Shown in pieces: positions 10,024-62,808 of a stretch of DNA of 64,000 bases. This stretch comes from Vermamoeba vermiformis (lineage: Eukaryota). The DNA is taken from positions 310,001 through 374,000 of the forward strand of contig JBEWZL010000243.1 in the NCBI GenBank assembly GCA_045837725.1, read 5' to 3'. The notes below the pieces were generated by a model. That model saw only the letters and a program-made list of their open reading frames with translations. It did no database searches and was not told where the DNA came from. Every line of letters starts with the position of its first letter. The first letter of the stretch is position 1. The position numbers and the translations under genes were made by a program.

Positions 10024-12574
<2,551 letters not shown>

Positions 12575-12777
12575 TGTGGTATTTGACTTTATCTACACTA
12601 TACCATTGGACTCAACATTACGCTGCAACATAGACTTAAATTTTCTTTGCTTTCTCTAGCCCAAGGCAAAATCACGTGATCATTCGAATGATGAATTTGA
12701 GGTTTTTATTACATTTCGGTGCGAAGGGTTTCAACCACGAGCAGGTTGATCTATTAACAACTCTTAATATTATTATT

Positions 12778-19998: not shown

Positions 19999-21641
19999 AT
20001 GAACAAGAGTTTCTTATCAAAGAAGAGCTGGCATACTGGTACTCTTCGTAATCAAGAGGTAAGTCATTTCGTTATTGCTCATCTGCCGAAAGAACTTGTA
20101 TCTAATATCCGTTGCTTTTCTAGAAAGTATGGCTTGCCGAACAACGCGAACAAGATGAGAGAAAGCGCATAGCTCAATTGCAAAAGGAGTTGCAGGAACA
20201 ACGACAGATTGAAGAGTTAAAGAAACTTCACGGAGATGCAGTAAGCGGGGCAACGACAACGAGAAGGTAAATAATATTGTTGATATTATTTTGGCTAACG
20301 ATATTGCCTAAAGCTACGATAATACATGATTTATTATCGGTGGTAATAATTTTCCATTTTTATATTGACAATTTGTGGCATATTTAATTATTTAATGATC
20401 AATTACCATTCAAAATAAATTATAAGCATACTAATATATTTTTATCACAAAGACAAGAGAAGTTGGATTGGATGTACTCCGAACCCATCTCAGCGGGTCC
20501 CTCGACAGAAGACTACATGACAGGCACTAAATTCAAAGAGAGCGCGGAAGAAGATCCGACCAAGCAGCTTGACAAGAAACCAGGCTCGTTGTGGATTAAC
20601 GACCCTAAGAACGCAGCAAATGACATGATCCAAAAACTACGTGACGATCCAATGTTGGCGATCGAACGAGAACGAAGAAAAAACCGCGAGGCGATTAAAG
20701 ACAATCCACTTAAGATGAAAGAAATGCGCGATATGATTTCGAAATTAAAAGAAAACAAAAAATCAGACAAGAAGAAGCACAAAAAGCACAAAAAACACAA
20801 AAAAGACGGCGCCAGTGATCGCGAAGACAGTCCTAAAGCTGACCGAGGCCGCACTGATAGCACCGATAAGAAGAGATCTGCATCACCTGAACGCACTTCT
20901 CGTCGTTCAAAGTCCCGTTCTCGCTCACGTGATCGCACCAGTCCTCGACGCGACTCAACACGACGAGACCGCAGCAGAAGTCGTGAAAGAAATGGTGACA
21001 GCCGAGCTGCACGTCGAAGCAGAAGTCCCGCGAGACGTGATCGCAGTCGAAGCCCTGTGCGACGAGACAGAAGTCCAGCCAGACGCGATAGAAGTCACAG
21101 TCCTGCACGCAAAGACAGAAGTCGCAGTCCCGTGCGTCGTGATAGAAGTCCGCGACGTGATCGTAGTAGAAGCCCTGCTCGTCGTGACAGAAGCCGCAGT
21201 CCTGTGCGCCGTAACAGAAGTCGCAGCCCTCGTCGTGATCGCAGTCGTAGCCCTGCGCGACGTGACAGAAGTCCAGCCAGGCGTGATAGAAGTCGCAGTC
21301 GTAGTCCTCGACGTGACACTAATGGCAACAACAGCCGCAAACGAAAGCACTCGCAGATGAGTGACAGCGAGCGACAACAATTGCTCGAACAGATGAAGCG
21401 TGACGCAGAAGCACATGCCGAGCAGAGAGTTAAGCGCATTAAATTAGACGAAGAAGAGACTAAGCGCGATGAATCAAGCCGTGCTACTGCAGAGGATCAG
21501 ATCGCACCTGAATTTATCAGCAAGATGGGTCAATCTGTTTACAACGATAAGACCACTGCCTCACTTGAAGATCGTGTGAAGCGCAATCAATTCTACTTGC
21601 AGAAGAGAGGTCTCGAAGATCGCGGTATGTTAAATAAATAA
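19999..21641 (+). CDS. CWC25: Pre-mRNA splicing factor CWC25 with RS-rich domain
   Basis: N-terminal Cir_N motif FLSKKSWHTGTLRNQEKVWLAEQ, LDWMY, KLRDDPMLAI, C-terminal SLEDRVKRN; introns ~20059-20123 and 20267-20451. Confidence 0.9.
21010..21320 (+). repeat. Degenerate coding tandem repeat encoding RRDRSRSP(A/V) units
   Basis: About a dozen consecutive RRDRS(RS)P variants within CWC25. Confidence 0.85.
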
Positions 21642-21692: not shown

Positions 21693-23353
21693 TTACATTG
21701 CGTTCAATTTGTTTGACTCAGAATCGGATTTTTTGAATGCAGGATAAGGCTCGGTGAGGACATTTTTCAACATCCAGGCCCAACAGAACCTGACGCCTTC
21801 AATTGATATGTGAATTCTACTCGGCCTAGTGGAGACACTGATGTTAGTGACGGGACCGTAGGGCTCAATGTTGATATTGCTGTTTTTGGGATCTTTTTTG
21901 ACGGCGTAACTGAACAGGTCGAATAAGAATTGGCGCGTCATTTCAAAGTCGAGATCCGCTCTCTTTACGGGCTGGTTCGCTCGTTCAATAGAACATTCGC
22001 CGAGATGGGTTATCTTCACTTCTAAATAGCGCCATTTCCAGGAACCACGTCGCGCGTAGCGCTCGTGATTTGAAGACAAAGTAACGCTTGCTATTGGCAC
22101 TATCCTGTTCATCTTCAAAGAATTAACACTCAGTCTTGGCTCGAAAGCAGTAGTTTGCCTAATTAGGAAATGATTAGAACTGATGTGGGTGTCAAGTTAA
22201 CAGGGCGTACCACGGAGCTGGTCCTGATTGCAACCGACCAGTTCTATGATTGGCGAAGAAGAACTTGCTATATAAACACGTTTCATCGTTAAATAAGGCA
22301 CTCAACTCTTTGATGAACAGTTTGAGCATTTTTTCACGGTGAACTGTCAGCTCTTCAACGACCTTCTTGCTTTTGTCTCGTCGAATAAACTTTTCTAGAG
22401 TATAAACTAGTGTAATAAAACAACTGTTAATATAAAAAATACGGGTTCAATCAACGAACCTTGCTTTTCATCAATAGCGTAACAGGCCGTAAAAAATAAC
22501 ACTTGTTCTAACCAAGGTCGGCTGTTATCCACTGCCGGTTTTTCGGTCAATTCAAATGTGTGCTTCTTATCACTGAGCAGTATTTTCTTCAGATTGTGAT
22601 ACACTTTCAACGGATACTTGGTCTGAATCTTGCGCTTGTTTAGGCCAGATGTAGTCCAACGGAGATTTCCTTCATCGTCCAGTTCGAGTTTAGACTGGTT
22701 GGACCCTCCAAGACATTGCATTACTGTTATACAATGACTTGCACTCGTATTTAATGACGGCAGTGCCTCTTGTATTGTTTTTTCTAAGAATTCGTGTAGG
22801 AGGCCGAAGCGGGCGTTGGATCTTGCGTAACTGGCGTCGTGCTCTTTGTAGACCAGGTGCTCGAAGGTACCATCAGTGCGTGTTATTATCATCATTCCAT
22901 CGTCATAAGGAGAGTCTCTTTGCCTTGGACGACGGGTTGGTTTTGGATCCTCCGTTGGTGTAACACGACCACACAGAATGTCCTCGAGGTGAGTAATAAA
23001 TGGCGGTATATCGCTTATTCTTGCGAATTCAGCTTCGTACCAGTACAGCTTGTGTTCAGAAGTACGTTTGAAGCCAAAGTGAAGAAATCTTCCTTTGTGA
23101 ATCACGAGGGCACGGTTGCCTTGGAAGTGAGCTGAGCTCTGAGCTGTAATTGTTGGGTGAAATAGGTACCCGTGAAGTTGTTTATACCAGTACGTGCATG
23201 TCAGGGTTAAAGCACAAGCTGTCGTCCAATTTAATTGTTGCAAGATCAGTCTAAGCACATCCGCAGGTAGCACTCCGATAGCTGCATTAAAATTGTCACA
23301 ATTTGGAAAAAAATAACACAAGGCGAATTTATATTAACCGTTTCGTCCAACAT
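21693..23353 (-). CDS. F-box protein with uncharacterised C-terminal region
   Basis: F-box motif IGVLPADVLRLILQQLNWTTACALTLTCTYWYKQL near the N-terminus; ORFs 22407-23321 and 21693-22118 appear joinable via introns; start ATG 23353 is tentative. Confidence 0.65.
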
Positions 23354-27775: not shown

Positions 27776-30700
27776 TTACATTTGATCCTTCAACTTTCGG
27801 ATCTTGTTCAGACCTGCGTTGGCGGATCTGAGTTGTTTCTCCAAAGCCAAAATCTTGACCTGTTGGTTCAACTCTTCAAGAGCATCATCATCGGCGTTAG
27901 CGTCAATGCCAATGACGTCACCTCCGTCCTCGAACTCCTTGACACGTTGAGCAGCGCGCACGAGCTCGTCAGTGGCCTTAGCGACGGCGCGAGCAGCAGT
28001 GTTGAGCGTGTCAAGTTCTGACGCGTCAGTGCGGGTACGAAGAGCAGCGACCAACTGAGCAGTGCTCGAAGCTACACTTTGAGCGGAGTTGACAAGAGAA
28101 TCACCACTGAACTTGGTGTCTGTTGAAGCTGAGTACAGAGAGCGCAGACCTTGAGCGACACCCTTGGCAGCTGTCAATCGGTTCTGAGCCCAGGCAGGCG
28201 GAGTGAACTTGCGTGTCTGTTGACCTTGTTGAACCTTCAGTGCGGCATCAACGAGGACACCAGTGGCGTTGACAATGGCCTGTGAAGCACTGATCACTGC
28301 GGACGTGACGACAGGATCGACGTTGGGAACTTCCTTGCCCTTGGCCTTTTGAAGAGAGGAGCCGACTTCCTTGACGACCTTGGCAGTGGATTGCAATTCA
28401 GTATCGACTTGCTGTTCGAGCTGAGTACTGTCGGCAATGCCGAGTGACAAGTTGTCAGTGCCGGGCAAGGCCTTCAATTGCTCAATGGAGTTGTTCACGC
28501 TGGTCATTACACCTTCGATGGCATCAGCAAGCTTGATCTGTCGCTCAGCGTCCTTAATGTCCAACTTGGCAAGTTCGAGAATTGTCAAGAACTTGTTGGC
28601 CACATCGTGTGACGAAGCAGTGATCTTGTCCTTGATACTTTCGTCTTCAGTCAAGGCGCACACACCACGAGTGAAGTTGATGTACTTCTCGACGTCAAAG
28701 GAAGAGGCTTGAGCAGCGTCGATCAACTCATCTTGGTTGCTAGCAACGACTACATTGGAGCCAGAATCGATAACTCGTCTCAATGCAGAGGCAACATCTT
28801 CAGGCTTAGCTTTAACGGCCAAACCGGCAGAGATTGATTGCAGGATGGCCTTCTTGGCGGCTTCGAGTTCCTTTTCAGCACGAGCGAATTCGCCACTAGC
28901 TAAGGTCAGGACGCTGTTCAATTGAGCAACAGCCTCCGAGATGGAGTTCTTGGCCTTGGTGAAGACAGTCAAAACGTTGTTATCACTGGACTTTTGAGCG
29001 TCCTTTGCAGACAACAAGAGTTGCTGCAAGCCCAAAGACAAGGCTTTAGCAGCATTGAGAATGTCCTGTTGAGTCAAGGCGTCGGGGAAACGACTAGCAG
29101 CCAAAGAAGCGAACTTTGTGGCCGTCGATGTGGCTTCGGCAAGCTTCTTGGAAGTGCTGGCAACACGCTCTTCGTTGACCTTCAAGCGGCTCTCAAGTTC
29201 AGTAATGAGAGCAGGCAACTTGGCAGTGTTCTCGGTGACATTGGTCTGCAAGCTTTGAATGCTTTGCTGAGCGGCTTCCTTGGAAACTTCCAATTGACCA
29301 GCTTGAGCAAAGATGGCCGAGGTAGTCAGTCCGGCGGTCAACTTGTTCATGTCTTCGAGCACCTTATTCATGACATACTCACCGACAGCACCTCGCTTGG
29401 CACCAGCAATCAAGTTGCTAATGTAAGTGTTGGTGTTGTTGATGTAGTCACGCAAAGTATTGGCGAGCGTGCCGTCAGGATTGTTCAAGAATCCTTCAGT
29501 AGCAAGGCACATTTGCACGAGCTCGTCAACGATGCTCTTCATGGCTGTGCTTATTCTGTTCTTGGCAGTCTCGTCCGTAGTTGTGGCAACCATACCACGG
29601 GCCATGTCAACCATCTTAGGAACGATTTCCTTCAATCTGTTCAAGTTCAGTGACATTTGACCACCGTTGGAAGCAGAAGCAGAAGAGAAAGACATCAGAA
29701 CGGAGGCCAAGTCCTTGGTGCCTGTAGTGAGTTCGGCTCTGTAGGCACTGTAAGAGGCTTCAGGGTTCTCAGCGGGAGTTGCAGCAATGTCAGAGTACGC
29801 GTGCAAAACAGAAGCAGCTTCTTGGCAGTCAGCAGCAAGGGAGGACTCGCCTTGCAAAGCGTTGAGCAATGAAGCAATGGAAAAACTAGCCTTGTCGACT
29901 TGTGATGAGGAGTCGATGTCAGTGCTCGAGCACGACTTGATCAAGCTTGACATGGCCTCGAGCAAGTCTTTGGCAGCGTGCAATAAGCTCTGCTGCTTAT
30001 TCATGTCTGGGGTGGTGGCCACAACTGCCTTGAGAATCTTCGTGGCAATAGGAACTCGTGATTGCACTTCTTCAGCAAGTTTTCTAAGTTCATCAGGCTT
30101 GCCGCTAGCCTCACCCATTTGTCTGATCAAGTCGTCTAATTCGTGAGTAACATCCACGAGATCGCGTTGGATTTCTTGAGGACTCTTGTTGGGAATCTTA
30201 ACGTTGAGTTGATTCAAAGTCAAGTCCTTGAAGGTGTTATCCAAGTCAGTGATGGCAGCACCAACGGCTTGATCGGCCTTCTCGCATTCACGGACCGCAG
30301 GGTTAAGAACGGCGGCGACGGCCAAGAGCTTTCTGATAGACTCAGAGACGTCTCCAGGTTGACCAGTGGATGCGTCACGATCTTTTTGGTTCTTAGCACC
30401 ACCCATTGAGGCAGCAATTCTGTTAATCGCTGCAATAAGTCCTTCAGCAGCTGCCTTAGAAGTCTCTGCGATTCTGTTGGCGGTAGAGGCATCGACAGAG
30501 GCAGTTAAGGTCTTGGACACGGTGCTGTCACCTTCGTTAACAAGCTTCTCAGCATCCAAAGTGCGTTCACGAAGCTCCTTGGCGGCTTCAGCAACGGTAT
30601 CGCTCGCTCCAGCTTCTTTCTTAACGACTCCAGGGGCGGATTGAGCGAGCTTCTTCATCGCATCAGCCATACCCTTAATGTTCTTGACTAAGGCAGCTTG

Positions 30701-33700
30701 ACGTTGCTTGTCATCACCAATAGATTTGGCTGATTCCTTGAACTTGTTGATAAGGTTGGCAACGGAGACGGCGGCCTTCTTGGTAGCAGCGACGACTTTT
30801 TGTCCGTCTTGGGTGTCGTTCAGAATGAGGGTCATGCACTTCGCGACAACGACAACATCATTGTTGGCATCGCCTTCACTCGATGAGCCGCCATCGGAGC
30901 TTGATGCAGCCTTCAAGGCAGAGCGAGCAGTTGAGAGAATGGAGCCCATAGTTGTAGCAGCCATCTTGCCCAAGAGCTCGAACTTGCCGGATGACTTTCC
31001 GGTAGTCATCAACTTGGTAAAGACTTGAGTGAACTTCTTGACGTTCGAATTGATCTCGTGCAACAAGATGGAGCTGGTCTTGGCCTGAACGTCCTTAAAC
31101 TCTTTCTTCTCCAAGCGATCCAATTCGTCGGTGATGATCTTGACAATCTCTTCGGCATCGTTGGAGGATGAGTCGAGAATGCCCAACAAGGCAGTCAATT
31201 CGTTGCTCGAAGCTGTGCTCAAAGAGTTCAAGCTTTCCAAGGCAAGTTCATCACTAGCAGCACCTGCTTCCTTGGCGCAGTTGAGCAAGCGAAGAATGTT
31301 GTCGGTGAGCAGGGTAGCAGCTTGCAAGATATCGAAGCTCAGGCCCTTATCATTGGTGGCCGAGGCGGCAGATGAGATGGAGGCGGTCAATTGAGAGACG
31401 GTTGAGGCAATAATCTTGCTGACACCACCGAGACCAGTTGGGTTGGTCTTGGTAGTAGCGACGAGTTGTGAAATCAAAGAAGAAAGGACCTTGGCGTTAG
31501 TCATCACGCTCTCAGTGGCTTGAGTGTATGTAGTCGCAGTGATGTCGTTGCCAGTAAGTTTCTTTGCGGCCTCACGAATGCTTTGAAGCGCATCATCGCA
31601 ATCACGAGCGTCGATACCGCGAGCACTAGCAACCAACGTAGCCAATGCAGTCTTGAAGTCAGTCTCGATCTTGTCGAATTCTTTCTTCTTGTTCTTATTG
31701 TTCAAGTCCATAGAGTACATACGACCGGAGGTGAGTAACTCGTAGGCAGTGGCACTGACAGCTTTAGCAGAGGTGATCATACGCTCCTGGACACCCTTGT
31801 CGCTGACAGTGGTAATCATTGAGCGTACACCAAGCGAGACTTGACCAATGCTGGAACTGGCTTCTTTGATGGGATTAATGACATTACCACCGACTCTGAC
31901 TTGGTCGGAGAATTTGTCAGTAGCGCCAGACAAACTCTTAATGGCCAAGTTGAGTAACTTGAAGGCGTTGTCACGAATTTCACTAGCTGCAACAATATCA
32001 ACTGTACGGTAGTTAGTAACTGAATCTTTCTACGAACAAACGTCTGCTTACCGTCGGTAACTTGTAACGCTTCAAGGTCGGAGTTAACGTTAAGGAACAC
32101 TTCCAAAGCCTCTTCAATTTCACGTTGACCACCAAGATCTGCTACTGAGCTGCATGCGGTTTCAAGCTTTTTGTTTAGCTCAACGATTTCGTTAGAGCAG
32201 AAAGCCAAATCTTGCTTCAAGTTGGGGTCCGTAATATAACGGCCACCACGCTTGGTAGCAAGCACCAACTCGGCGAACTTAGCCAAAGCTTTAACCGAGG
32301 CTTTAAGCAAGTCGATTTGGTAACGCTTGTTGTGCGGGTTTTTGCCGGCAGCTGCAATAACAGGGACGAGCTCTGAGACTTCAGCGAGTGTGGTGTTGAT
32401 CGTGTTGGCGAGAATGTTCTTGGCGTCATTGTCAGGCATGACACGCAAAGCGGATCTGCTCATGGCAGCCAGCTTGACGATACCGGCAGCCGCAGACTTG
32501 GCGTAGTATCTCAAAGAGTTGATAGAGAAGGCCTCACCAGCATCGGCGAGCAATTGATTTGCTTGGGTCTCAAGCACGGAGACTTCGTGCAACAACTTAG
32601 CTTGAAGAGTATTGTCTTCAAACTTGGTGTTGAGTGCTCGGCCGCCTTGAAGGACTTTTTCAGCTTGAACTTTCATAGTTTGGAGCATTTCGGCCAAGCG
32701 AGCCTTGGTGGCTGGTTCGGCATTAGCGATCAAACCCTCAGTCAAAGCAATGACGTTGTTGTTGGATGTGACAATGGCCTTGACGTTTGTAACAAGGCGA
32801 TCAGGCTCGGCAATGTTGACTTTCAGTGTCTTGATGGTGTTGGAAAGGGTGTTGACCAAGCCGTAGAAATCAGATTCACCGGCAGCAGCTTGGTTAGGTT
32901 CAGCCGTCTCAGTGCTGGCAATCATCTGCTTCAGTGACACGCGAATAGCTTGCACCGCCTAAGTCGAGTTAGTACATTGTTGATATTGAGTGGCAAAGGG
33001 AACATACGCTGTCAAATCGGGCTCTGTCTGTGCTGGCAAGTTGAGCGTTGCTAACAGACAAAGCGACGCGCTCAGTCAACTCGGTGACCTTGCCTTGGTT
33101 TTCCGCGAAGTACTTCTTAATTTCAGGACTGAGTGCCACAACAGACATCATGCTGACTTCTTCTGCCATGGTAGCCTTGGCCCGTTCCAATTGACCGATC
33201 TCGTGAGTGAGAGCTTCTCTTTTCTCAACAGAAAGGACTTCAGCAGCACCGGCCATCACAGCAATCATTTCTTCCATGTTGACGGTGACAGCGTTCACGG
33301 TCTCAGCGACCAACATACGAGCACCCTAAGCATTAATGTTAGATACTTACATTGATGCAAGCACTCTCTACTTACAGAGTCAGTTACGAAGTTGTTAACA
33401 ACACCTTCGACGAACTTCATCGAGTCATTAAACTTGCGTTCAGCAGCGAAGTACTCGTTCAAGAACTCAGCGCTGGGAGGAGCATTGGGGTCGAGACCCT
33501 CATAGCAGGCTAGAAGTGAGCTCAATGCTTTCGCAACGTTCTATTCTTATAATTAGTAAAGCTCTCGAGCGCGGTAAATACTATAACTTACGCTGACACC
33601 CTGAAGTGCGGGCAAGTCCTCGAAAGACTTGGCAGCGGCGGCCATGTTCATAATAGTGGTGTGCATTTCCTTCAAGTTGTTGTTAAGAGCACCTTGCACG

Positions 33701-35624
33701 ACCATGCCAGGGTTCATCTTGGCGGTCTTCATGAAAGAATCGACGGTTTGATACAACACGTCCTTTCCACTGATCAAAGCGGACTTCAAATCAACAGGTG
33801 TAGCAATGGCCTTGATCTCGAACTTCTCGAGAGCAGGTTTGATTTCAGCGCTCAAAGTAGTCATCAATTGGTGAGCAGAAGGAAGATTAACGACTTGGAT
33901 TTGACCTGCCTCAGGGAAGAACTGCGAGTATACAGCCGCACGGTTGGCCGGGGGCATGGCTGCAATTGCGTTAGTAAATTACGAGGGAAAAGCACGTGTA
34001 CACTTACATGGCAAAGCACTGATAGAAACGGTTTGAGCGGCTGCCATTGGTGTTTTCATTGAAACGCTCGAGTAATTGACCATGCTGGGTGTAGCTCTCA
34101 TGACTTCTCCAACAGGAGCTGTCTTGTTCATACTGTATCCGATTTGCACGGTACCCTCGATAGCGGTGAGCGAGCTTTCTTCAGCAATTTGAACGTCGTC
34201 TTCAACAATAGTAGAACCCTCATCTTAACAAAGCATTAGCTATGCTGTTAATACTTAACGTGCAGTACGTACCCTTCAATAACTTCATGTACAACTCGAC
34301 GTACGCTTCAATCAACTTGACGATGGGAATAGACTCTTCAGTGTAATACACCCAAGGCTCGGGTTCCCAGTCACCGAAGTCCAAGATGACGGATTTGGCT
34401 TGCGGGGCCCATTTCTTCATGTGGAACAAGGTTTGCTTGCGAATAGGCTCCAAAGTCTTCACGTTGTTCACAGTGACAGTTTCCTTTGTGAAACCGAGCA
34501 ACACGTCCTTGAAGTCACCCTTTTCCTTGTTTCTCTCCTTGACACGGAAGTATGTGGTGCCGTAGGCTTTGAGTGACTTGACCAACTGTAAGTAACGTCT
34601 CTTAGCAGCCAATAGTGACGTGCCGGCCAAGTTTTTGTGTTCGTGAGTAATGGCCTTCTCGATCTCGGGCCATTTGGCTTTCTTTTTGAGCATTTGCACG
34701 GGCATATAATCGTTCAAGCTACGTGACATTAGTCGTTGTTCAATTTGGAGACAATTCTACTTACTCAAGAGTGCCGGGCTTGTACTTGGAGGGGTCGTAG
34801 TCTCCGTAATTAATTTGGCACAACATGGCCGCGCAACTGATGGCTTCGTTTCTCTGGCACGGGTATCGGCCACTGAGAATGTTGTTCTTGGCTTGAATAA
34901 AAGTCATGTGAAGTGCTGCAGGGTCGTCCATTTCAGAGGCATCACCGGCATCGAACAACTTCTTTTCAAAGATGAGTCGTTCTGTGTCAGTGACGTCTTG
35001 CTCGTGGAGCGGCAATTGCGCGAAAAGGAATTGATCTGAAAAATAAATTAATTTGCTGCTTTTGCGGATTTAAATAAATAATTAATCTTACTTTCGCTAC
35101 TGTCTAATTTTCTCAGGCCCCAAGCTTCAAAGTCCGTTTTCAACGCCAAATTTTCTAAAATCGTTTTCACAATGTCTCTGACTTTAGAGCTATCGTCAAT
35201 GAGCACAGTTTTAACTGAATCGTCCGCCAAGACAATTTGCAATCGACGATGCTTCTTCTTATAATACATTTCATCCTAAATAACTTAACGTTAACATTTT
35301 AAAATTCGATGGATTTGCCAAGCAATTTCATAAACTCAACAAAAAAGAGGTACTAGCAATATTATACCATTAATGAGCTAGAGCAATACTTACATTTGTT
35401 TTGATGAAATAGTTTTTTAGGGACTTGGTTCGATCCAACCATTTTGGTTTTAGTTTCTTTTCAGGGTTGCCTGGCATAAACAACCCGAAGTCATCTCCTC
35501 CCACGTTAGATTTTTCTTTAATTTCCTTGAGCACTTGGTGGATGCTAATCTCGGGAGGAAACTTCAAGATCTTCGTTGAGGAATTTTGTCCTGCAACGAT
35601 ATGAATCTTAATAGCAAGCGCCAT
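27776..35624 (-). CDS. talin: Second, divergent talin paralog (FERM, rod, diverged I/LWEQ)
   Basis: FERM motifs LKAYGTTYF and MKKWAPQAKSVILDFGDW; rod segments align with the first talin (e.g. GIDARDCDDAL, SAIFAQAGQLEVSKEAA, QQDILNAAKA); C-terminal QQVKILALEKQLRSANAGLNKIRK; at least 10 exons. Confidence 0.93.
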
Positions 35625-36094
35625 TCTATTTACAAATAGTTAGTTCAATTACTTAGCACAAAAATTAATAAATAAATTGCAGTGCAAAGGTAAATTATCA
35701 AAAACGCATATTTCTTGTCGAAAGGTTAAATACCTGAATAAGGGACTGGCGATATGTGGTACTACGTTGTAAAATGATGTTAAAATTTCTCCTTCCCAAG
35801 CGGTTGTGCCAAGCGGTAAACAAAAACAAACGCACGTGACTTTGGCGAGATTAATCAGGAGATAATCGCCACAAAAGGGAAACCACGCGTGTGTTACAAA
35901 ATTACGCACGGAATGCGTAGCTATTGCAGAAAAATTGTAGTATCACTAGCAGACTGAACTTTGGTCTGATACAATTTCCTGGTCTAAATTTAGAGGATTT
36001 TAAATTCGATAGTGGATTTATCCACCACCGATTGCTAAACGGCTACGGTTCGCACCTGTCATCAAAACCAAATAACAAATAGATTAATAACACG

Positions 36095-39000
36095 ATGAGC
36101 AAGCAATCAAAAAAGAAGTAAGTTGCTGGAGCTCTTTGGTCTTAAGATTTTTCTAATTATCATTACCAAACCAACAGAAAATTAAACGAGCCAAAGCATA
36201 TCGAGGATAGCGATGCATTGGAAGAAAATAAAGAGTTTACCACGATAGAGGAATTTTGGCGCTTTGAAGATGCGCTTTCAACAGATGAGAGGCGAGCCAG
36301 GTAGCCTAAAAAATTAACTATAATTAGAATAATATTAACAATATTTATAATTGTAAAATAGATATTATCACGGAGATTATTACACGTTGCAAGATATTAC
36401 GACTTGGGCAAATTATGTCGAGACCATACCAGCAGTTAATTTTAAGGAGCACCGAGACCACATTGAGAAATTAGTTAAGTCATGGGAGTTGTTGCCAGAG
36501 CCTGAAGAATGGGACGAAGATAATTCGAGTAACAGCGACAGCTCTTCAACAACTCCTCGCAAAAGAGTGACAGGCCCACGAGAGTTAGTGCTTGATTTTG
36601 AACCAAACGAAGAGCTGAATAACAAAATATCTTTGTGGCGTGGAGATAGTACGTAGACGAACCTGACTATTGCAATTTACTAACTTGATAATAGTCACAA
36701 AACTGGAAATTGATGCGGTTGTCAATGCAGCTAATGAAAGCCTGCTAGGCGGAGGAGGAAGTAAGTCTCATCTATTGTTTGTACAATATTCTAATGTGTT
36801 GTAGTCGATGGAGCTATTCATGCAGCAGCTGGTCCAACATTAGTCGAAGAATGCGCTATGTTGCACGGGTGTTCGACCGGCAACACAAAGATATCGCGAG
36901 GACACAAACTACCAGCCAAGTTTATTTTGCACACAGTTGGTCCTCGTTGTTATAACACAATTACAAAATTGCCTGTGGAGAAATTACAACGGTGTTACAC
37001 GTCGTGTTTATCACACGTGTCAAACCACAAGTTGAAGTCAGTGGCCTTCTGTTGTATCTCAACGGGGATCTTTAGCTATCCTAATGAAGCAGCGGCATTC
37101 ACGGCCATATCAACGGTCAGAGATTGGTTAACGAAGGATGATAACTATAAGCGTATTGATCGCGTCATCTTCTGCGTGTTTGAAGAAAAGGACTTGAAAA
37201 TCTACGAACAGATGATGCAAGTATTTTTCCCGCCCGTGAGGCACTCTAAGAATGTCCAACTACCGTGCTATGCCGAGGAGAGGTGGAGCAAAATCAAAAA
37301 GTTTGTGAAGAAGAACACAATTGGCAATATCGAGGAGCTTTGTGTAAGTCAACACTAAACCTTCATAACTCGCATACTAATAGATGCCGTAGAAATTTAT
37401 CCGTGACTTTAGTCCCGAGCAGTCCCTCGATCTGTCAAACTTGAAACTTTTGTTCGACAAACTAGGTGACACCGAGACTTCCGATTTTTTCACCAAAACT
37501 CTTCCCGGTAAGTTGCTATTTGAAGAAGCTATCGAGCTAACACATTTTGCAGCAATACTTCGCTTAGCTGTTCGACTTGAAGGAATTTGTCGCGAGGAAC
37601 AACGTCAACACGATTTGTTAGAAGACGTTAGAACTAACACACTCGAGTACGGTGCCATTCCATTGCTAGTGCACGCAGTTAAAAACAGCGCTGTGACTCT
37701 CAGTCAAGAAAAGGTACGTAACATCTATATTTTATCAAACAAATAACCCTAACATCGTTACTAGATTGCCTCGCTGGTGGCCTGTGCATTTTTGTGTTTA
37801 CTGCCGCAGCAAAAGTTCCACAATCAAGTGTTTGCGTCATCCAATTTCAAACAACTCTACGCTAAAGTCGCTGCTTCTGAAGTCGAACATGTGTTGCCCA
37901 ATCAAGCCAACAAACTGCGGTGCTTGATTCATTACTTCAATAGGATAAATGATAGTAGTAAGTACAATTATAGAGCATATGAGGGTGATTAGTATTGACG
38001 GATGTATGGTTGCTAGTGCCTGAAGGATTCGTAAAGATCGAACGACGGAATTTCACGTCGCCGATGGAGAAATTAGACCGACAAGAACAGTTGTCTCCTG
38101 CATGGCATTTGCCTGTCATATTTAGTGACGCACCGCCTCATGCACCAAAACAACAAGAAGATGGTGTTGTGCTGCTCGACGGCACGGAGTTCCCTGCAGC
38201 CACTTTCTTGAGCGTAAGAGTCGGGCATTTTAGTCATGCTTCAACTGCCTGTTATAGCCCAATATAATAGACCATATGACTAACACTTTTTTATTGTTAG
38301 TCCCGCGACATCATCACTCCAGCTGAAGTATTTTGTTTGACTAATCCCGAATTAACTGTCTTGCCGTTAATAACATCGCAACTAGTGTAAGTTCTTTATA
38401 AGCTAATAATATATTGCTATAATCTTTGGCACTAATCTTTACTGGATCTGTTTGAACAGTAACTGGGAGTCCATAGAAGTACGAGGCAGTGAAACGTTTT
38501 GCGAGTGCAGCGTGGATAAGGCGGGAAGAAATTTCAGATATTTGGGAGATTACAAGGACAATATTAAGAAGTAAGTTTGTAGCGCTCTCCATTGCGGTCA
38601 GATCTAGTCATAACTGGGTTCACTTTTTTGCAGGGATAACCGGCTTAAAAAGCGAACGCTGATTTTCATCGATTCACCTAAATGTCGCGACAAAATGGAC
38701 CAACTCAAGCGGCATAATATACTCATCGAGTATCACAATGTTTATGCAGCGTTGATGCCTCACATCCGCGACAGAACTATTTCAGTTTTCTACGGTAAGC
38801 TAAAATTACACCCAGTTTAACGTTAAATTATTTAATGAAATATATCCTTGCTCTATTTGGCTTTAATTGCTTGATCGTTCATGAAAAATTAAATTAAATT
38901 TGGTCTAGGCGATGGAGGTTACAACGACTCTATTGGTACCGACCTGCAGATCAAAACAATGCTCTTATTAATAGCCATTCATGCCATTGGTTGTAAGAAC

Positions 39001-39889
39001 AGCGCGGTCAATGAAGTCTTGCAAGGATCAAAGGACAAGATCAAAGCGGCTAAAAACCAATCGGCGCCCGTCCTGTTGCACTTATCCAACTACGCACATA
39101 TCGAACAATTTATTGCTGCTATTAATGTCCTGAAAAAAGAAGAGGTTTCATCATGTAAGCTCCCAGTTGAAATTACTTTCTTTGGGAATTGACAATCTTT
39201 TACTTGCATCGATGCAGTTCTAATTATTTGATTATAGGGCACTTCGTAGAAAGGTTATGGACCGATTTTATTGAGCCAACCAACGATGACTTGTTTACGC
39301 GGATCAAGAGCAGATTCAAAGGCTGGAAGAAGGAAGCAAAACAGTTGCATAAGAAAAAGGTACAAAGTCTTTCAATTATTATTGGCTATCGCGGAATATT
39401 CCACCTTTCAGATTCTAGTGACGGTTATTGACGTTCGATAATTCCGATCTGACCAATTTGTACATAGGATAAAGAGAGAAAGCAGAAGGTGCGACCAAGC
39501 GCTAGTATACCTCGACGTAAGACCGATATGGGCACTAGCTCTGGTCAACACAAGGGTAAGCAACTTTCTGGCTGACATCCCGTTCAATTTTGTGAAGCGC
39601 CGCTCTCTAATATACTGCTCTTAAATTAGCGTCAAACAACAATGCAACGGGAACCATTGCCGCGCGAAGCTCTACAGGCCTCTCCATATTCTCGCCACGA
39701 ACGCAAAAGTCCGAGCGCGATCTGAAAAAACTTTCAGTGGACTCCAATAATAAGTCAGATATCAATCTTAGTGCTTCTGATTCGAGAAGAAAACGAGGCA
39801 GCACTATCGACACGACAGCAGATCTGAAAAGAAAAGATACGGATCTTGAACCGGAAGAAAAAGAACGAAAAGAAAAGAGCAAGAAATAA
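36095..39889 (+). CDS. MacroD-type macrodomain fused to a PARG-like domain with degenerate catalytic motifs
   Basis: Macrodomain [57 protein letters not shown]. Then PARG-like FFTKTLP, VTLSQEKIASLVACAF, NKLRCLIHYFNRI, AEVFCLTNPEL, LIFIDS, DLQIKTMLLL. Basic low-complexity tail; TAA 39887-39889. Confidence 0.85.
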
Positions 39890-40245
39890 TAGGAGAAATG
39901 ATCGAATAGGCATACGCTAGAGGAGTAAGTCTTTAAGACGTTTTTCAGCTTTCTTTTCTTACTTGAAGATCTGCGGCGTAGGAAAATTCGATTTTCGTTA
40001 AAATTATTTATCCTTCTATGTAAATAAACAAATCGAATGTGTTAACCTCAGCGAAATGACGACCTATTCTAAAAAACCTCAATCGTATCTCAAATCAACC
40101 TTCTTAAATTATTTCTTCCTTATTTAGAAAAAAAGAAATTTTTCAGCCAAACTTTTAAATTGGCATATCAGCAGTAAATTCGATCAATGCGCAGTATTGT
40201 TACTTTTGCAAAACTGATCACCACACTTCAAGCGTCACATTAACG

Positions 40246-43200
40246 ATGCAGCGCTTGATCTTAATAATTTTAGCTGTTACTGTTGGATGTGCTCTAGCAA
40301 ACGTGTCTGCAGGCACGATAACGCTTGGCATGTCGTTGACTACAACACCTGTGGGCAGCACTCGCGCTCAACAAGGCTCTAACATATTGAATGGACTCAA
40401 CCTTTGGCTTGACGCCATCAACTCGACAAGCGCCCCCATCCGAGGCCAGAATTACAGATTTGAGCTGAAGATCCTAGACGACGACGGAACAATTGAAAAA
40501 ATAACCTCCAACTACCAGCAGCTCATGAACGACTCTACGGTAGACTTCTTGCTCGGTCCCGTTGGATCTGAAACTAGCAATCCGATTAGCCAACTTACCA
40601 ACTCGAGCCAAAGACTGCTCATCGGCACTTCAGTTGGTTCAGTTGACTTCTACACCAATATGGCCTACTCTTTCAGCGTTGTTCCGGCCGCAACACGCTG
40701 TCCAACCATCAGCTATCCGTACTTCAGACTGAAAGGCAGCACCAAGATTGCTCTAATGATCTCTCAAGCAAGAAATCCTAAAGAAGCATGCTCTGGCATC
40801 AACGATCAAACGGTAAGTTATTGATACACCTCTTGCTGTTTCTGTTCGGAATTATTTTGCAAGATCCCGGCATTACCTTTGATATATATTGCTTATAATG
40901 TCATATTTAGAGTGGAGTAAGTACTCAGAGTACTTTTATCATAATTTCCAATCCGTTTCAATCTCGCGAGGTAACCATTGTGTCAGTGCGTTTATTAACT
41001 CGGATTTGTAGGCGGCAGCAAACGGATTGGAAATTGTTGCCAGCTATCAAATTAATTCCAGTCTCGGTAATATTAGTGAATACGCGCAAACACAAATCGA
41101 AGATATGGTCACAGTAAGTTAAATAATCCGTCATTCAATCACTTCAATTATGTTAATTTAATTTCTCCGACTGTATGCCGACACTTCGTATTCATTAACG
41201 CAATCGTTAATAGGACCTCAAAACCAAAGAAGTTGATGCTGTTATTGGCTGCGCTTTTGGTGATACAGGAGAGCTAATTATGGAACAGTTTAGAGCTCAA
41301 AACTTTGCTCCAAAATTCGTCACGTTTTTGCCGTTCGATACTCAATACTCTAATATCGACACTGGTCTTAGCGACTTTATTACTGGATGTTCAAGAGTAA
41401 GTAACTTTGCGCAAGTTTACGGATGTCCCCAAAAAGGAAATTTCAGTTCGAGTCCAAGTTTCAGGATGTCTACTGTTCGTAATGATCAATCAAATCTTAA
41501 TTTGTGGCATTAAGGTCACATAATCCTTAAATTCTAAATTGATTCGTTAATAGTTTGAAGCCGGAGCCAACTTCGTCAAAGATCCTGTCTTCGGAGGTAC
41601 TCAAAAGTTCGTGCAAGCTTATCAGGCCAAGTACGGAGCTACTCCAGACGATTATGCGGCCTTTGGCGCCATGTCGGGCATTCTCTACCAGATTTCCATT
41701 CAGGTAAGTTTGCAACTTTTTAACATTAAATTTCTTGATACATTCAGAAAGCGAAAGTATATCATATATTTATAGCGCGTACTAACAATAGCCCATTAAT
41801 TAATAGAACGCAGTCTCGTTTTCTCAAGACGCAGTCCGCGACTCAGTCGAACGATTCAATGAAGACACCTTCATGGGCCAAGTCTTCTTTGGCGTCGATC
41901 ATAGCAATCAAATGTCGTGCTTGTATGTACAAATGGTCAATGGCTCACGCATGGTCGTTGGTCCTCCTTTGGCGCAGTTGACTTCATTCGACGTAATCGA
42001 TCCTTTTCCAACGTGGGAAGAACGAACTTTTGTGCGCACTTTCAACGGTAAATATCTTACGATAAGGTCCATAGGTGAGATACTAATGATGCTCTTAGTG
42101 TACGAGGCTGAATGGGTCTTCTTCAGCTTGGCTCTCATTGGAAATGCATTCTCGCTCGGTTTGTTGATCTACGTTATTGCGGCCCGAGACTCGCCTATTA
42201 TTAAGTAAGTCGTATCATAGCGCTGTTTATTTATTCTCGTACTAACTATACAACAGGGCAAGCTCACCGAACCTCCTGATCATTTTCTTGATCGGATCCA
42301 TGTTCCTCTACTCAAGCATCTTTACTTGGACCTTGTCTAACGTTAGCGCTGCGTCATGTTACATCCAGTCTTGGATTCTTTCCTTTGGATGGACCATTAT
42401 GTTCGGGTACGTAATGCCATACGTCGCAATTAGTCGCGCGCTGGATGGATCTAACTAATTTCATCGTAGAGCTTTGATTGCTAAATCTTGGCGTGTATAT
42501 AAGCTCAGCAGCAACAAATCACTTCAAATCTTCAAGATTACCGATGCTCAATTGGTCTTCATTATTTTGGGTCTTTTGGCGGGCAATATTGTAAGCACTG
42601 GATCCGCTCTTCAACCCTGAACTATACTCTAATACTAGTACAGATTGTCTGTGCGGTGCAAGCAGGTGTTGTGGACATGAACCCTATCCGCGTTCACGTC
42701 GACGAGTACCGCCCTATTTACGACTACGAACAATGCCCTGAAGACGGTGCAGTGATTGGCATTGCTGCTAGTTTGATCGCGTATAACGTAAGAAAATTGT
42801 TAACAATACCTCGGTATGCCTATCGTTCTAACACCATGTGATTAGGGTGTGTTGTGCATCGCTGGCTTGATAATCGCTTGGAAGATTAGAAAATTGCGAT
42901 ACTCCGTGTACAACGAGTCAAAGATCATCGCGTTCTCCGTAAGTACAAGCTACACTATGACTATCAGTCAGTAGTACTCACCAAACCTGCACTTTAGATG
43001 TACAACGCAGCCTTCTTCGCGATCCTTGTAATTGTGCTGCAATTCACGCACGCCACGGAACGAGAGTTGCTGTACATATTGAGAAGTGCTGGCATCATGC
43101 TTGGAACTGGTACGTCGATGCGATTGAAGTTTGACACTTTGACACCTGTCATTGACCCTTAATTTTACAGCTGTCAGCGTGGCCACTCTGTTCGTCACGA

Positions 43201-46633: not shown

Positions 46634-48046
46634 TTAAGCCTCCATAAACACCTTGATGACACCTTCGGATTTCTCTGAAAACTTCTTGTAGAATTCAGGA
46701 CCGTCAGTCAGCTTGCCGCGAGTAGTGACAACGAAGCGCGGGTCAAATTCGCCGGACAAGAGTTTAGGCACAATCAACGGCCAGTACTTTTGAGAAGGAC
46801 ATTGACCACCGCGGATCGTAAGATCTTTTTCCATCATTGCACCAACTGGGAAGTGATTAGCGTAACCAGTGTACACGCCGATGACTATAAATATGATGTG
46901 TTAGATCATATTGAAGAGAATCAAAAGTAAAGCAGATCTAACGTACCAGATACACGGCCGAACTTGCGAACACAAGTAAACATCTCAGAGAAGATGTCAG
47001 CAGTATCGGTCTCGAGACCAATGGCCATTTCGATCTTATGAGTCCAAGTCTTGGCGTATTCAAAACCAGCACATTCGATAGCCACATCCACGCCACCAGG
47101 GCACATTTCTTGAATGGCCTTCACTGTGTCCTTCTCCTTGAAGTTAATGACCTCAATACCGAGGGTGTTCTTGGCAAGGTCCAAACGGTCAGGTACGCAA
47201 TCAATGCCAATGACGCGTTTGGCCTTGCGAATCTGGCACCAACGAGCCGCTAGCAAACCAATAGGACCCAAGCCCCAAATAGCAACAGTGTCGCCTTCTT
47301 TGACCTCACCGAGCTCGGTGCCGTGGTAGGCAGTAGGAATAATGTCGGACAAGAAGAGAGCGACGTCGTTGGGAAGTTGATCGGGCACCACCAAACAGTT
47401 CACATCCGCGAAAGGAACACGTACGTACTCGGCTTGACCTCCGGGAACACCACCAGTCAAGTGAGAGTAGCCATAAATCGCCGAGGTGCGGTGACCGTAC
47501 ATAGTTTCCATCAATTTGGAGGGATTGGTCGTGTCGCAAGCTAGCGATAAGATCAGATCATCGAAAAGTTTTTCAAAGTGCAAATGTACTAAATACTTAC
47601 CAGTATATTCTTGTCTCTTACAATAATCGCAAGTACCGCAAGCAATACCAAAGGCTACGACAACGCGTTGACCAGTTTTAATGTTCTTCACTTCAGGGCC
47701 AACTTCTTGGACAATACCCATAAATTCGTGGCCGAGAATATCTCCCTTGTGCATATCAGGAGTAGCGTTAGAGTACATGTGCAAGTCCGAACCGCAAATA
47801 GTCGTCGCGGTAATCTTCAAGATGATATCGCGAGGATCCGTGATCAATGGACGCGGAGCATCGATTAGACGAATGTCTCGCTTGCCGTACCACGCCAAAG
47901 CGTGCATTTTGCGAGACTCGTCGACCTTAGGTTGAGTGGGGGTGCTAGTAGGCTATAAGAAATGTTAGTATTGTTGTGTAAAGGCGAGATCTGGCACGTA
48001 CCACTTGGCCCAAAGCCACATCAGCAGTTTTAAATAGAGTGTTCAT
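46634..48046 (-). CDS. Zn-dependent medium-chain dehydrogenase (glutathione-independent formaldehyde dehydrogenase/YbdR-like)
   Basis: TTICGSDLHMY, GHEFMG, structural Zn CGTCDYC...C, GYSHLTGGVPGGQAEYVRVP, LSDIIPTAY, WGLGPIG. Confidence 0.93.
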
Positions 48047-57921: not shown

Positions 57922-59955
57922 CTATTCTTTTTTGCTAGCGATTTTTATCTTTTCAGCTTTCATTTCTTCGAGGATCAAATGCTGGTTGTGTTCCGTGATT
58001 TCAAAGAACTCTTCTTCGAGAGATTTTTTGTGAATAATCGTCAAGAACGAAACACCACTAACACTAGTAGCCGCACCGTGGAACGCTATTTGAAAAATGT
58101 TAATTCTGACCGGATTAATTGAGTTCTAACGCACCTGCCGCTCCGAGCATTGCAAACACGTTTACTAAAGGCACAAGCTTAAGTGCTTCGAGGCCAAATA
58201 AGGCAACTCGAGCGGCTGTCACGGGGATGTTCGTTGCAGCACCGGTCCAAAGTCCGTCTGGCCAACTGGTAAGTCAAAAAAACTTGCTGAAAGCTTAAAC
58301 TTACGAGCAATAGTTTTCAAAGTCCCTGCAGGAGATTTCATGCCGTAGAGTCTCATGATTGCACCGAACATGCCAACGTGAAGTGGAATGATCATGGCCA
58401 AGTCCGTGAATGGACTTCAAATGGTTAGCCGCACGTAATATTTAGATATTTCTACTTACATTGGCGATAATCCAGCAGCGGCACACGCGGTACTGAAAGC
58501 TGCAACAATAGCCAAGCCCTTCTTCTTTCTGGCACATAATTAGACCCGTGTTTATAACAAAGAACATCCACGTTTCTTCTTAGGTACGTACAAATCAGCA
58601 TAATAGGCGGCTTGGTTCGAGTAGAACATCTCGGAGAGCTTGTCATTCTTCTCTTTCCACTTCAATAGCTCACGTGCCATCGCTCTTGCCAAGTCGTGCA
58701 TGCCATGTGCAGGAGTGGTCTTGCCTTTGATAGTTTTATCTTTGGCCAGCACTGCATGGTAGCTCGAAATGTTGTCGTTCTTCAAGTCGGTCTTCATGAG
58801 CTCCAAGAAGTTCAAACTTTCTTCAGATGAGCACTGCAGTAGAACGACCATGACCTGCGCGAACTCGGCGATGGCGTTAATGACGCTAATTTGCCACTCT
58901 TCTATGCGAGGCTTTTGAAGACAGAACAAGACCAAGTGAATCTTTTCGCCTTTGATGTGAGGTGCGTTGCATGCAACTAGGTTGAGGACGAAGTTGACGT
59001 AGCTCGGCAAGTCATGGAATTGAAGGTTCTGCTCTTTCTCGTTCTTAGCCACGTTGAAGAACCCGGGAGTGTCGATGAAACGAACTGAGCGTCCATTGTG
59101 TGAGTACTGCACATGCTCGACCTTGTTCGTCATCGCAACACCCGAGCAGTTTCCTTCTTTCAGTTGTAGCTTTGGAGGCGGTCTGCAAAAGTTGTTTCCC
59201 AAACAACTCTTGCCAATTCCGTTGTCACCAATCATCAAGACATTGACGTGATCAATGCCTGATGTATTGGCATCAAGTAAGATTTTTGCTCCAGCTATTG
59301 CCCGTTCGTAGATGTACAAGGGCGCGAATTCGAATTGGCGCACTAGAATCGAGCGTCAGCGATGAGGAACTAGTAATGATTACTTGAAATGAGAAACAGC
59401 TTACTTTTCTCCTCGTCAGTGGGATAGTCTGCAACAATGTTCTTGGCGATGTTGATAAACTCTTCTCTGTACACAAAATCGGCTGGAATGAGGTCGTTCG
59501 TTTCAACAGGTTCTTCCTCGAAATATTTCATGCGCAAGAATAAAGTAACAATCAATCGCTTAATGTTGGCGTTAAGTCCGATCCATGGGTGAAGCAACTC
59601 GTGAAACTTCTGGCGACAATACGCTCTAGTAAATTCGCCTAAAGAATTGCGTAAGAATACAACTGAAAAATTCACTTGAATGAAGCTACTTACAGCCAGC
59701 TACATGGACATAAAGAGACTCGATTTTTGCGTATGTCTCCCTGAGTTGGTCGTCACCGAGTCTGCCAATGGCAAACAAAACTTCCAAAACCTGCTTCTGA
59801 GCCTCGTATTGATCTTGGTGAACGTAAAATGCGCCGTCAGAAAGGGAAATACACAATCGACATTGCTCGCCTTGCCTTGCTGTCAAAGGCAATACAAAGG
59901 ATTGTATGTGGGGTAGGGCGTTTGTAATTAGTGGAAGAATTCCGTCGGTGGACAT
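57922..59955 (-). CDS. P-loop GTPase with DUF697/YcjF-like hydrophobic C-terminal domain
   Basis: G1 VLMIGDNGIGKSCLGN, G3 FIDTPGF, KIHLVLFCL. Spliced C-terminus AAAGLSPIPFTDLAMIIPLHVGMFGAIMRLYG...LKLVPLV. Introns 58529-58591, ~58416-58459, ~58259-58304, ~58087-58134; TAG 57922-57924. Confidence 0.85.
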
Positions 59956-60218: not shown

Positions 60219-62808
60219 ATGATGGCCACAAAATCACTCCATGAAATTACCAATGCTTTACAAGTTCTAAAAGCGAGGTAAGAATTAAAATCTGATCATC
60301 CGTTATTCATTCACTGAATCCGATCCAATTCTTTGGCTTCTAACTTTCATCAGATTGCCCAAAGCCGCCAGAAAAACTCTTAAAGTCATAGAGTATGTTG
60401 TTATTGGTGGAGAATCGGCCGGAAAATCGAGCTTGGTTGAAGCGCTTGCCGGATTCCAATTCAATTTTATTCGTCTTGGTCAGTATGAATACGCAATAAC
60501 CATTTAAATTAATTTTATGGTCAGGTATGGGAACTCGCTGCCCTTTAATCCTTCAGATGGTCAATGACCCAACTTGTCATCAACCCAGATGCAGGATCAC
60601 CATTGACGGAACCACTCAGGACATCCCCATTGCTAACATCGCCGATATAATATCCGCAAAGACTGAGCAACTCAAAGCGGCAAATGCAGTATCAACAGAT
60701 CCGATAATTGTGGAGCTGGTCAGCCGCGACTGCTTCAACTTCACGTTAATCGACACTCCAGGTCTGAAAGGCGTAGGACATGATGACAGTACGTGAATAT
60801 GATGTATATGTTTGGAAAATACTAACGCCATCAATAGAAAAATTGGTGGCGGACATCGAACACATGGTGGAACAACTTATCACGGGGGAAAACTCGCATC
60901 GGACCATCATTTGTGTCGAACAGTCCGAGGTAAATTGATCAAATATCTCTTCCGCCCGGTACCTTTATGAATTAATTTACCTCGCAGAACACGTGGGATC
61001 ATCCAGGGCTTGGCAGACTCATGATCGATCGCGTTGACAAGAACTACGAACGAACAATTTTCGTCAAAACAAAAATCGATCAAATTTTATCGCGTCACAG
61101 CACCGATGCCGCAGAATGGTTTGCAGACGGTAGAAAAAAGATCCCCAACTGTCCAATGTTTTGTGTTGCCACTCCAACGAAGCCACAAGAACCTCAAAAG
61201 TGGACGGACGAAGTTTTCCGTGCCAAACTTCGAGATGAGACTAAGAAAACGCTGAATATGGTCGAAAAACTGAAATTAGAGTAAGTTAATCGCATTAATT
61301 CCTATTGTTTTGTTTTTTACAGCAAAGTTTAGTGCCGACTTGAACATTGAGTTTGGTGTGGAGGCGCTGAAAAAGTACCTCGAAGACGACTACGCAAAAA
61401 AGCTGAAACTTCATATGAATGACGTACTGTCGTCAATTGACAAGATCGTGCATGATCTCGAAATACAATTGAACGAAACTACCACCGCGCTGCAGAAAAA
61501 CGATGACAAAAATCTGCAAAAAGATGTTGTTAGACAAGCAGCGGTCATTACAAACATGTTGCAAGAGTTTTTTCAGGGCAAATTGAACCGAAATATTACT
61601 GATGGTGTGACTTTGAAAGACGAGAACGATCGCTGCTTTAGAGGTGTTGACCTGAAATCGATGGTGCCGTGGATGCACCAAGTGGACTTTTCTCTTTTGC
61701 ACACACAAACCTCGCTGTTATATGGAGGTACTTCCATCCTTATTTACATAACCCTATCATATACTAAACTTACATACAGGGTCGCAGTACAATCGAATTC
61801 TTCACGAAGTTGAACTGATCGTCAAGTCCCTTGAATTGCCTTATTTGGGCATTGATCAAGTTGATATTGCACGTGGTGCACAATTGAAATCCAATAACGC
61901 TTCGTTCGGCGACACAGTGAGTACTCAAACCATTGCCTAATTTGGTAATTAACTCCGATTTAGGTGTCAGAACTTTGCTGCAATCAGTTATCGCGCTGTG
62001 TGCGTGACATTCACGTCTATTTGGCCAAAAAGCTCAAATTTTTCACTGAAACACTCTTAACGGTGACGCTCAACTATCTGAAGCAAGCGAACGACTCATT
62101 GGCATTCTCCATGGCCGCCGAACAAATACGTCAATTATACCCTGCGTACGTACGAGTTGGTTCGATATTAGGTGTTCTTATTATTTAATATTTGTAGTGC
62201 TGTTGAGTCCGTTCTAAGCAGGTGGCAAGATCTGGCCAAAGACATTGTACCGACAGAAGAATATTCACGGTCAATGTTGAATCCGTTGACTTATCGCAAA
62301 CGAGTAGAATATAGGTACACATTTATTGATGCCACTAATCATTAACCCCATGCTTAACCAAAATATTTTTTTTCAGTGAAAATTTGGATCCCAAGACTCG
62401 GATTCGAGAAGAATTACAAAACGTGCCGATCAATGAGACTCCACAGTTCGCTAATCTCCCGACCAGCGAGATTATGGAGCCATTGACCGCTGCCTGTCGG
62501 TACGCCTTCAGAAGACTTTGCGATCAATATCTCACTACGCTACTTGGCTTGACTAACAGCTTCTTCTCGATCCCACTGTAAGTTCACTTTTTGCTTAACG
62601 TTACTAATATTAAGAGTTACTGATGCGACTTTTCTTAAGGCAAAAAGCGATCCCTGCCATTCTGGGTGACATTGAGCTGCCTCCCAATGCCCTTGCGACA
62701 ATAGCAGCTGAACGCCAAAGATTGGAAAACAACAAACGCGAGATCTCGGCTGAGATTTCTGACTTCAAGACTTTGGCAGAGCAATTCGAAGTCTATCGCA
62801 TGCAATAG
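60219..62808 (+). CDS. Dynamin-like protein, DRP5A/ARC5/Dictyostelium Dlp type
   Basis: VVIGGESAGKSSLVEALAGFQFN..GMGTRCPLILQMVND (closely resembles the DRP5A G1/G2 region), TLIDTPGL, VKTKID; about 10 exons. Confidence 0.88.

Follow-up and report, generated by a model that had tools for sequence, protein, structure and literature searches.

A gene that joins two kinds of ADP-ribose eraser in one chain, with one of them apparently disabled, was found in Vermamoeba vermiformis. It lies at positions 36095–39889 of the forward (+) strand of a 64,000-nucleotide stretch of contig JBEWZL010000243.1 (hereafter the window) and encodes a predicted protein of 925 amino acids (aa), in which a MacroD-type macrodomain is followed by a PARG-derived half whose catalytic signature is gone. 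The removal of ADP-ribose is usually divided, with PARG trimming the chains and MacroD taking the last unit. Both parts of the protein come from known families, and what appears to be new is their conserved fusion with one half disabled. The protein is probably a nuclear mono-ADP-ribose eraser with a pseudo-PARG attached.

The gene consists of 16 exons (36095–36117, 36178–36300, 36362–36648, 36695–36760, 36805–37343, 37393–37507, 37553–37713, 37765–37957, 38017–38213, 38301–38386, 38460–38570, 38634–38794, 38909–39154, 39238–39359, 39468–39555, and 39630–39889) in a region that is eukaryotic and rich in introns. Its 15 introns are all GT..AG, with 44–114 bases each, and their removal leaves a single open frame that opens at 36095, runs through 925 codons, and reaches its stop at 39889. 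Transcript evidence was sought in four public sequencing runs of relatives, out of seven listed as containing the stretch. The contigs of X1, X2, and X3 are mostly 95–99% alike to the gene; their RNA status is a guess, none of the listed runs being recorded as RNA, and they were treated as transcripts because spliced joints are visible in them. X5, an RNA-seq run, comes from a more remote relative. In these transcript-type contigs and reads, joints were matched for nine of the 15 introns (1, 7, 8, 9, 10, 11, 12, 14, and 15), while for intron 13 the support is a loose end in eight reads, and introns 2–6 lie outside the coverage. The gene is thus expressed in relatives. Some variation was seen at its 3′ end in X1, where a further joint, with two different letters, is visible for intron 15 (window segment 39555–39632) and the last exon carries a 6-base insertion at 39740; these are tail variants.

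It must be noted that the initial annotation had named, among others, two findings against a fused gene with a degenerate PARG, namely two separate genes or an alternative splicing that restores GGG..QEE. Neither was found. The end of the MacroD domain and the first PARG elements share one stop-free exon, and the relatives P0128 and P0124 are uninterrupted there. In addition, the joint 38213 to 38301, which falls within the degenerate catalytic loop, was found in two runs (X2 and X3), and the + frames of 37958–38470 contain neither GGG nor QEE; therefore, an alternative splice cannot restore the catalytic motif.

Several other genes were identified in the window. Two of them encode talins with FERM head, rod, and I/LWEQ domains (27776–35639, −; 2748–9086, +), and the first, which begins near 35624, lies in head-to-head orientation to the MacroD-PARG gene, about 470 bases away. 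On the other side, a family-3 GPCR-like gene (40159–42841, +) combines a periplasmic-binding ectodomain with 7tm_3. Together with the talins, this receptor gene suggests an amoebozoan. Two GTPase-like frames are located at 58552–59355 (−), with a weak MMR_HSR1/AIG1/Septin match, and at 62765–63589 (−), with no Pfam match. The loci 10024–15408 (−), 20388–21641 (+), 22407–23333 (−), and 46921–47952 (−) account for a DEAH helicase, proteasome RPN1, CWC25, an F-box-like protein, and a zinc dehydrogenase. No separate active PARG was found within the 64-kb window.

The N-terminal region (aa 1–136; 36095–36624, +) is composed of a Lys-rich start, an extension of the MacroD type, and an acidic/Ser-rich spacer. 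Residues 35–99 match P0128 (E 5e-10), the extension resembles by eye those of free MacroD proteins, and a nuclear signal may be present. The macrodomain follows at aa about 137–309 (36625–37232, +), with 61% identity to P0128. Exon 5 matches Pfam Macro at 1.1e-31 and the top three PDB matches of the domain are MacroD2 and MacroD1 (human MacroD2, 1.2e-42; MacroD1, 6.1e-41). The motifs on which the initial annotation had based its MacroD assignment are present in the spliced protein, with NAAN at 155, the glycine-loop motif starting at 163, and STGIFSYP at 252. The active-site set comprises Asn158, Gly163–166, Asp168, His172, and Gly254-Ile255-Phe256, the last three aligned with GIY of MacroD2 and GVF of MacroD1 in the diphosphate loop G-[IV]-[FY]. 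The positions given for MacroD2 (Asn92, the glycine loop, and the Asp102/His106 pair; Rack et al., 2020, PMC7050489) are kept, and P0128 has His at the Asn92 position. A Zn-dependent macrodomain, the SirTM partner, in which an extended zinc loop replaces the glycine stretch (PMC7050489), was ruled out, given that a plain GGGG loop leads directly into the helix. As judged by these residues, the domain is a MacroD-type hydrolase with its active site intact.

A short linker of pattern FP-x9-LPC (37233–37256, +), of equal length in the window protein, P0128, and P0124, connects the macrodomain to the second half; in P0004, another relative, it has 26 residues and fits a looser pattern. From about residue 317 to about 790 the elements follow the canonical PARG order. 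The helical accessory domain (aa about 317–520; 37257–38070, +) has the motif FHxQ at 456–459, and exon 8 matches Pfam PARG_cat_N at 2.7e-13. The core half (521–790) gave no Pfam match when its exons were scored singly. Once spliced, it reached 40.5 bits against a profile built from 15 canonical PARG domains, versus 2.6 at most for 500 shuffles. The PARG order and fold claimed for the downstream exons thus held, and a PARG origin of the second half is supported by these scores. Taking as conserved those columns with at least 85% agreement in the same 15 domains, the window protein keeps 36 of 74, and they are very unevenly distributed: 18/20 in the accessory domain versus 18/54 in the core (Fisher p 1e-5). 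The corresponding values for P0128 are 19/20 and 21/54, and the PARG cores of the two proteins are 40% identical. The last strand and helices of the fold are followed by a basic helix (aa about 790–812) common to P0128, with 31% identity over 735–812; both parts lie within 38947–39359 (+). The low-complexity basic tail (39468–39889, +), with 28% Lys+Arg past residue 795, is probably disordered; the last exon has no Pfam match, and the tail has no conserved counterpart in P0128.

The sites of the PARG half are lost or rebuilt in three places, and the degenerate motifs quoted in the initial annotation are all present in the spliced protein (TPAEV at 574, FCECSVDK at 610, and YGDGG at 687). Human positions are numbered by the alignment to 4A0D and after Tucker et al. 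(2012; PMC3519477), and the residues contacting ADP-ribose are those named in that paper and in Rack et al. (2020; PMC7050489). The first place is the catalytic loop (38147–38349, +), in which GGG is replaced by AAT and QEE by PAE. The whole GGG-x6-8-QEE signature is gone in the family, as it reads AAT...PAE in the window protein, SEW...PHE in P0128, and SDG...RSD in P0124, and its sole remnant is an acid at the Glu756 position (E, E, and D, respectively; Glu577 in the window protein). Asn740, which is N in 14 of the 15 canonical rows, is T, S, and S. In the second place, exon 11 (38460–38570, +), the Tyr-clasp hairpin has become a family motif, FCECxVD, and has gained an insertion of two residues; this motif is present in P0128 and P0124 and absent from 15/15 canonical rows, and the GY of the Tyr795 clasp, found in all 15, becomes KA, KN, and AD in the window protein, P0128, and P0124, respectively. 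The third place, covering exon 12 and the start of exon 13 (38634–38946, +), is the diphosphate loop, changed from GNWGCGAF to GDGGYNDS. There the G-[AV]-[FY] element (human 873–875) reads NDS in the window protein and DLL in P0128, P0124 stops short of it, and Asn869, the Asn of GNWG, is Asp689. The splice joining exons 12 and 13 is covered by six X5 reads.

Altogether, the changed human positions are Glu727, Asn740, Gly744–746, Val753, Gln754, Glu755, Tyr792, Gly794, Tyr795, Asn869, and Gly873-Ala-Phe. The residues near Glu727, Asp737, and Phe902 are aligned in a loose register. In this regard, D557 stands in the column beside a gap near Asp737 and may match it (E in P0128, V in P0124), and the Phe902 column, as we assign it, is a gap in the window protein, with Tyr749 one residue on, and Leu in P0128. 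Mutation at the Glu755 position is by itself sufficient to abolish the activity of human and bacterial PARG and weakens ADP-ribose binding by the bacterial enzyme (PMC3519477). Since this loss alone suffices in those enzymes, the PARG half is expected to leave PAR uncut and is probably dead.

P0128 (1245 residues) is the most informative relative. Its Macro, PARG_cat_N, and PARG_cat_C matches are all over the cut-off (PARG_cat_C, 4.9e-22), it scores 1e-16 to 1e-21 by sequence against canonical PARG structures, and it aligns with the spliced model at 42% identity over 736 columns without any break at the MacroD-PARG junction. Its site is broken at the same places as that of the window protein. 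P0124 is a fragment that runs from the MacroD end through the accessory domain to the degenerate loop. Residues F456, H457, C611, C613, V615, and D616 are present in 3/3 family rows and in 0/15 canonical rows, and the PARG modules of the three sequences fall on one side of a branch (100/99) versus the 15 canonical rows, a grouping that carries a long-branch warning. The FHxQ motif is shared by the window protein, P0128, P0124, and P0123, and occurs with Tyr in P0126; both P0123 and P0126 have this accessory-domain motif in fragments too short to reach the fusion. The catalytic site is covered by three sequences, one of them only partly. Even so, this pattern indicates that the window protein, P0128, and P0124 form a conserved family of pseudo-PARG fusions and are not a single decayed gene.

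The family is narrow in its known range. A sequence search of 1.84 billion representatives returned seven matches (two close fragments at 82–84%, P0124, P0123, P0126, and two canonical PARGs), and a profile search with 7999 scored candidates returned three, namely two canonical PARGs and P0128. Exon 8 alone gave eight candidates in a word search, none of them a match. Scans for the family motifs yielded 0 confirmed loci in 224 metagenome-contig and 40 viral-contig pattern matches, and among 52 loci fitting the accessory-domain pattern, many of them on short contigs, none had a MacroD match or the family motifs. The Atlas search with the PARG module of P0128 found PARG clusters only. Given that the metagenome and viral scans added no member, the family seems to be either rare or little sampled. 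When exon 5 was searched, P0004 was the only one among the best 120 of 156 matches that extends into the PARG part. It joins MacroD to the start of the accessory domain and ends before the catalytic loop. A tree of MacroD domains alone joined the window protein and P0128 (SH-aLRT 91) and did not place P0004 as their exclusive sister, so P0004 was not accepted as a proven member. P0004 and P0031 are sister MacroD fragments with Lys/Glu-rich repeats, and the former may be a separate fusion.

Other domain arrangements were observed during these searches. P0125 (1500 residues) carries a tandem of two canonical PARG domains, both intact; P0028 and P0056 fuse a Macro domain to an ADP-ribosylglycohydrolase (PF03747), which is another two-eraser pairing; and P0127 has a TIL domain before PARG, possibly from two genes merged in prediction. 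Small signature changes also occur in canonical-type PARGs, such as GGL plus Asp for Asn in L002 and MEE in L004.

The PARG module is under constraint. Between aa 312 and 790, 22 of the 26 changed codons (X1 and X5 pooled) are synonymous, counted from the best-supported 40 of 135 differences, a partial sample that is no dN/dS estimate. Five of the synonymous changes fall in codons 690–700, within the degenerate second loop. A model of P0128 residues 240–974, built with 20 alignment rows, reached pLDDT 70.5 and pTM 0.62. Its residues 10–188 superimpose on MacroD2 with Z 25 and rmsd 1.7–1.8, and its residues 193–627 on mammalian PARG with Z 28 and rmsd 3.4–3.7 over about 360 aligned residues, a value that is not independent, given that the alignment included three canonical PARG rows; it also contained one misaligned window row. 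Both degenerate loops have pLDDT <50. When P0124 was folded as a control with the canonical rows left out, the result was uninformative (pLDDT 44, pTM 0.24), so the PARG match leans on those rows. The structural match thus illustrates the PARG assignment and does not prove it, and the sequence evidence stands without it.

The initial annotation had proposed a mono-ADP-ribose eraser carrying a dead PARG that may act in PAR binding or scaffolding. The intact MacroD site, the missing PARG signature, and the fusion agree with this proposal, and of its two suggested roles scaffolding fits better; PAR binding is weakened, since the losses extend past catalysis to the ligand contacts. We consider it reasonably probable that the pseudo-PARG is a docking or targeting module that brings the MacroD eraser to partners or substrates. 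The macrodomain would be the working enzyme, and its motifs suggest that it takes single ADP-ribose units off Asp/Glu esters, O-acetyl-ADP-ribose, or nucleic-acid ends. The PARG half would keep its fold without cutting PAR and probably without holding ADP-ribose in the old pocket, since nearly all the ADP-ribose-contacting residues are lost. Docking would take place via the conserved accessory domain and the remodelled cleft rim. What is kept in this half is the fold, the accessory domain, the fixed linker, new invariant residues at cleft-lining elements, and the basic helix. Such a role is plausible given that PARG-1 acts independently of catalysis in Caenorhabditis elegans meiosis (Janisiw et al., 2020; PMC7519143). 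Historically, a two-step eraser in one chain may have lost its first step later. Human PARG itself removes mono-ADP-ribose from Asp/Glu (Longarini and Matic, 2024; PMC11102441), and for this reason one may speculate that the MacroD and PARG halves once overlapped in substrate. As a counterpoint to docking, the Glu756 position is acidic in 3/3 family sequences, which a pure scaffold need not retain.

A reader of PAR or ADP-ribose, in which the pseudo-PARG holds the chain while MacroD takes off the last unit, is the first of the other explanations, and we regard it as unlikely. The fold and the cleft position are retained, and some catalytic mutants of bovine PARG keep ligand binding (PMC3519477). 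In addition, R570, K617, R620, K633, R637, K640, and R641, common to P0128, as well as the basic C-terminal helix, could contact a polyanion outside the old pocket. However, the two glycine loops with which PARG clamps the diphosphate have been replaced, one of them with acidic residues, and the residues that contact adenine and ribose have changed as well.

The retained acid also raises the question of a rewired enzyme, which would apply the Glu756-position residue to some substrate that is not PAR, perhaps with the help of a Cys-x-Cys/His metal or substrate site. Besides the acid itself, present in 3/3, TPxE and a preceding RD are common to the window protein and P0128, and the new invariant residues align to cleft-lining elements. 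Nevertheless, the P0124 loop is strongly different, with the acid shortened to Asp, and the nucleotide-binding loops are missing, which makes this explanation decidedly doubtful. A drifting relic without function, retained only because it must fold, would agree with the low conservation of the core relative to canonical PARG (18/54), and the folding constraint by itself also favours synonymous change. Against it, the whole module has been retained over about 58% divergence, with family-specific invariant residues of surface type and a fixed linker, and a stop after MacroD would suffice to lose it; we therefore consider it very improbable. Finally, no read or contig among the runs compared spans intron 5, as would be expected of two neighbouring genes merged by the gene model, but such an artefact is scarcely credible with the junction in one stop-free exon, P0128 colinear over it as one frame of 1245 residues, and P0124 and P0004 also crossing it.

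The docking reading must be placed in the context of known proteins. Human MacroD2 and MacroD1 (PDB 4IQY and 2X47) resemble the window protein in the Asn, the glycine loop, the Asp/His pair, and the G-I-F loop, and they differ from it in having no fused PARG module. Canonical PARGs (human 4A0D/4B1H, rat 3UEK, Drosophila 8ADJ, and Tetrahymena 4EPP) share the order of accessory domain and macro core; they possess GGG-x6-8-QEE, Tyr795, and the G-A-F loop, all three of which the window protein has lost. Vertebrate PARG has its own N-terminal regions, whereas here MacroD stands directly upstream. The Arabidopsis AtPARG2, with a single G to L change in the signature and no detectable activity (Feng et al., 2015; PMC4287526), is likewise a natural PARG paralogue without detectable activity, a property that for the window protein is predicted from its residues. 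AtPARG2, however, keeps QEE, is stand-alone, and is recent, while the window protein has its entire site rebuilt, is fused to another eraser, and shows conservation at 42% identity. C. elegans PARG-1 is described as an enzyme that is active and has a further role via partners, and not as a pseudoenzyme (PMC7519143). In protists, PARGs are reported to gain extra domains (PBZ, Nab2-type finger, and G8), and some bacterial-type PARGs of Naegleria have partly conserved signatures (Perina et al., 2014; PMC4245714). A MacroD-PARG fusion is not among the PARG fusions in sections 3.2 and 3.3 of that work, nor is one mentioned in the portion of a Dictyostelium review considered here (PMC8529158). No description of such a fusion or such a pseudo-PARG was found in a search of open literature, although an architecture listing in subscription papers or supplementary tables could include it.

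The natural dead PARGs known so far, such as AtPARG2, are recent paralogues with few changes, whereas this family is deeply conserved and has motifs of its own. What the PARG accessory domain does besides giving stability has been called elusive (Rack et al., 2020; PMC7050489). In this family no part is better preserved than that domain, although the active site has been lost, and the protein thus offers a ready test of non-catalytic PARG function. It is even conceivable, if quite unlikely, that an ancient protist family remade the cleft of PARG as a new centre for catalysis or recognition around the surviving Glu and new Cys/His residues, held to MacroD by a fixed linker. If true, the rebuilt cleft would be a natural separation-of-function PARG and would reveal a role of the accessory domain besides supporting catalysis.
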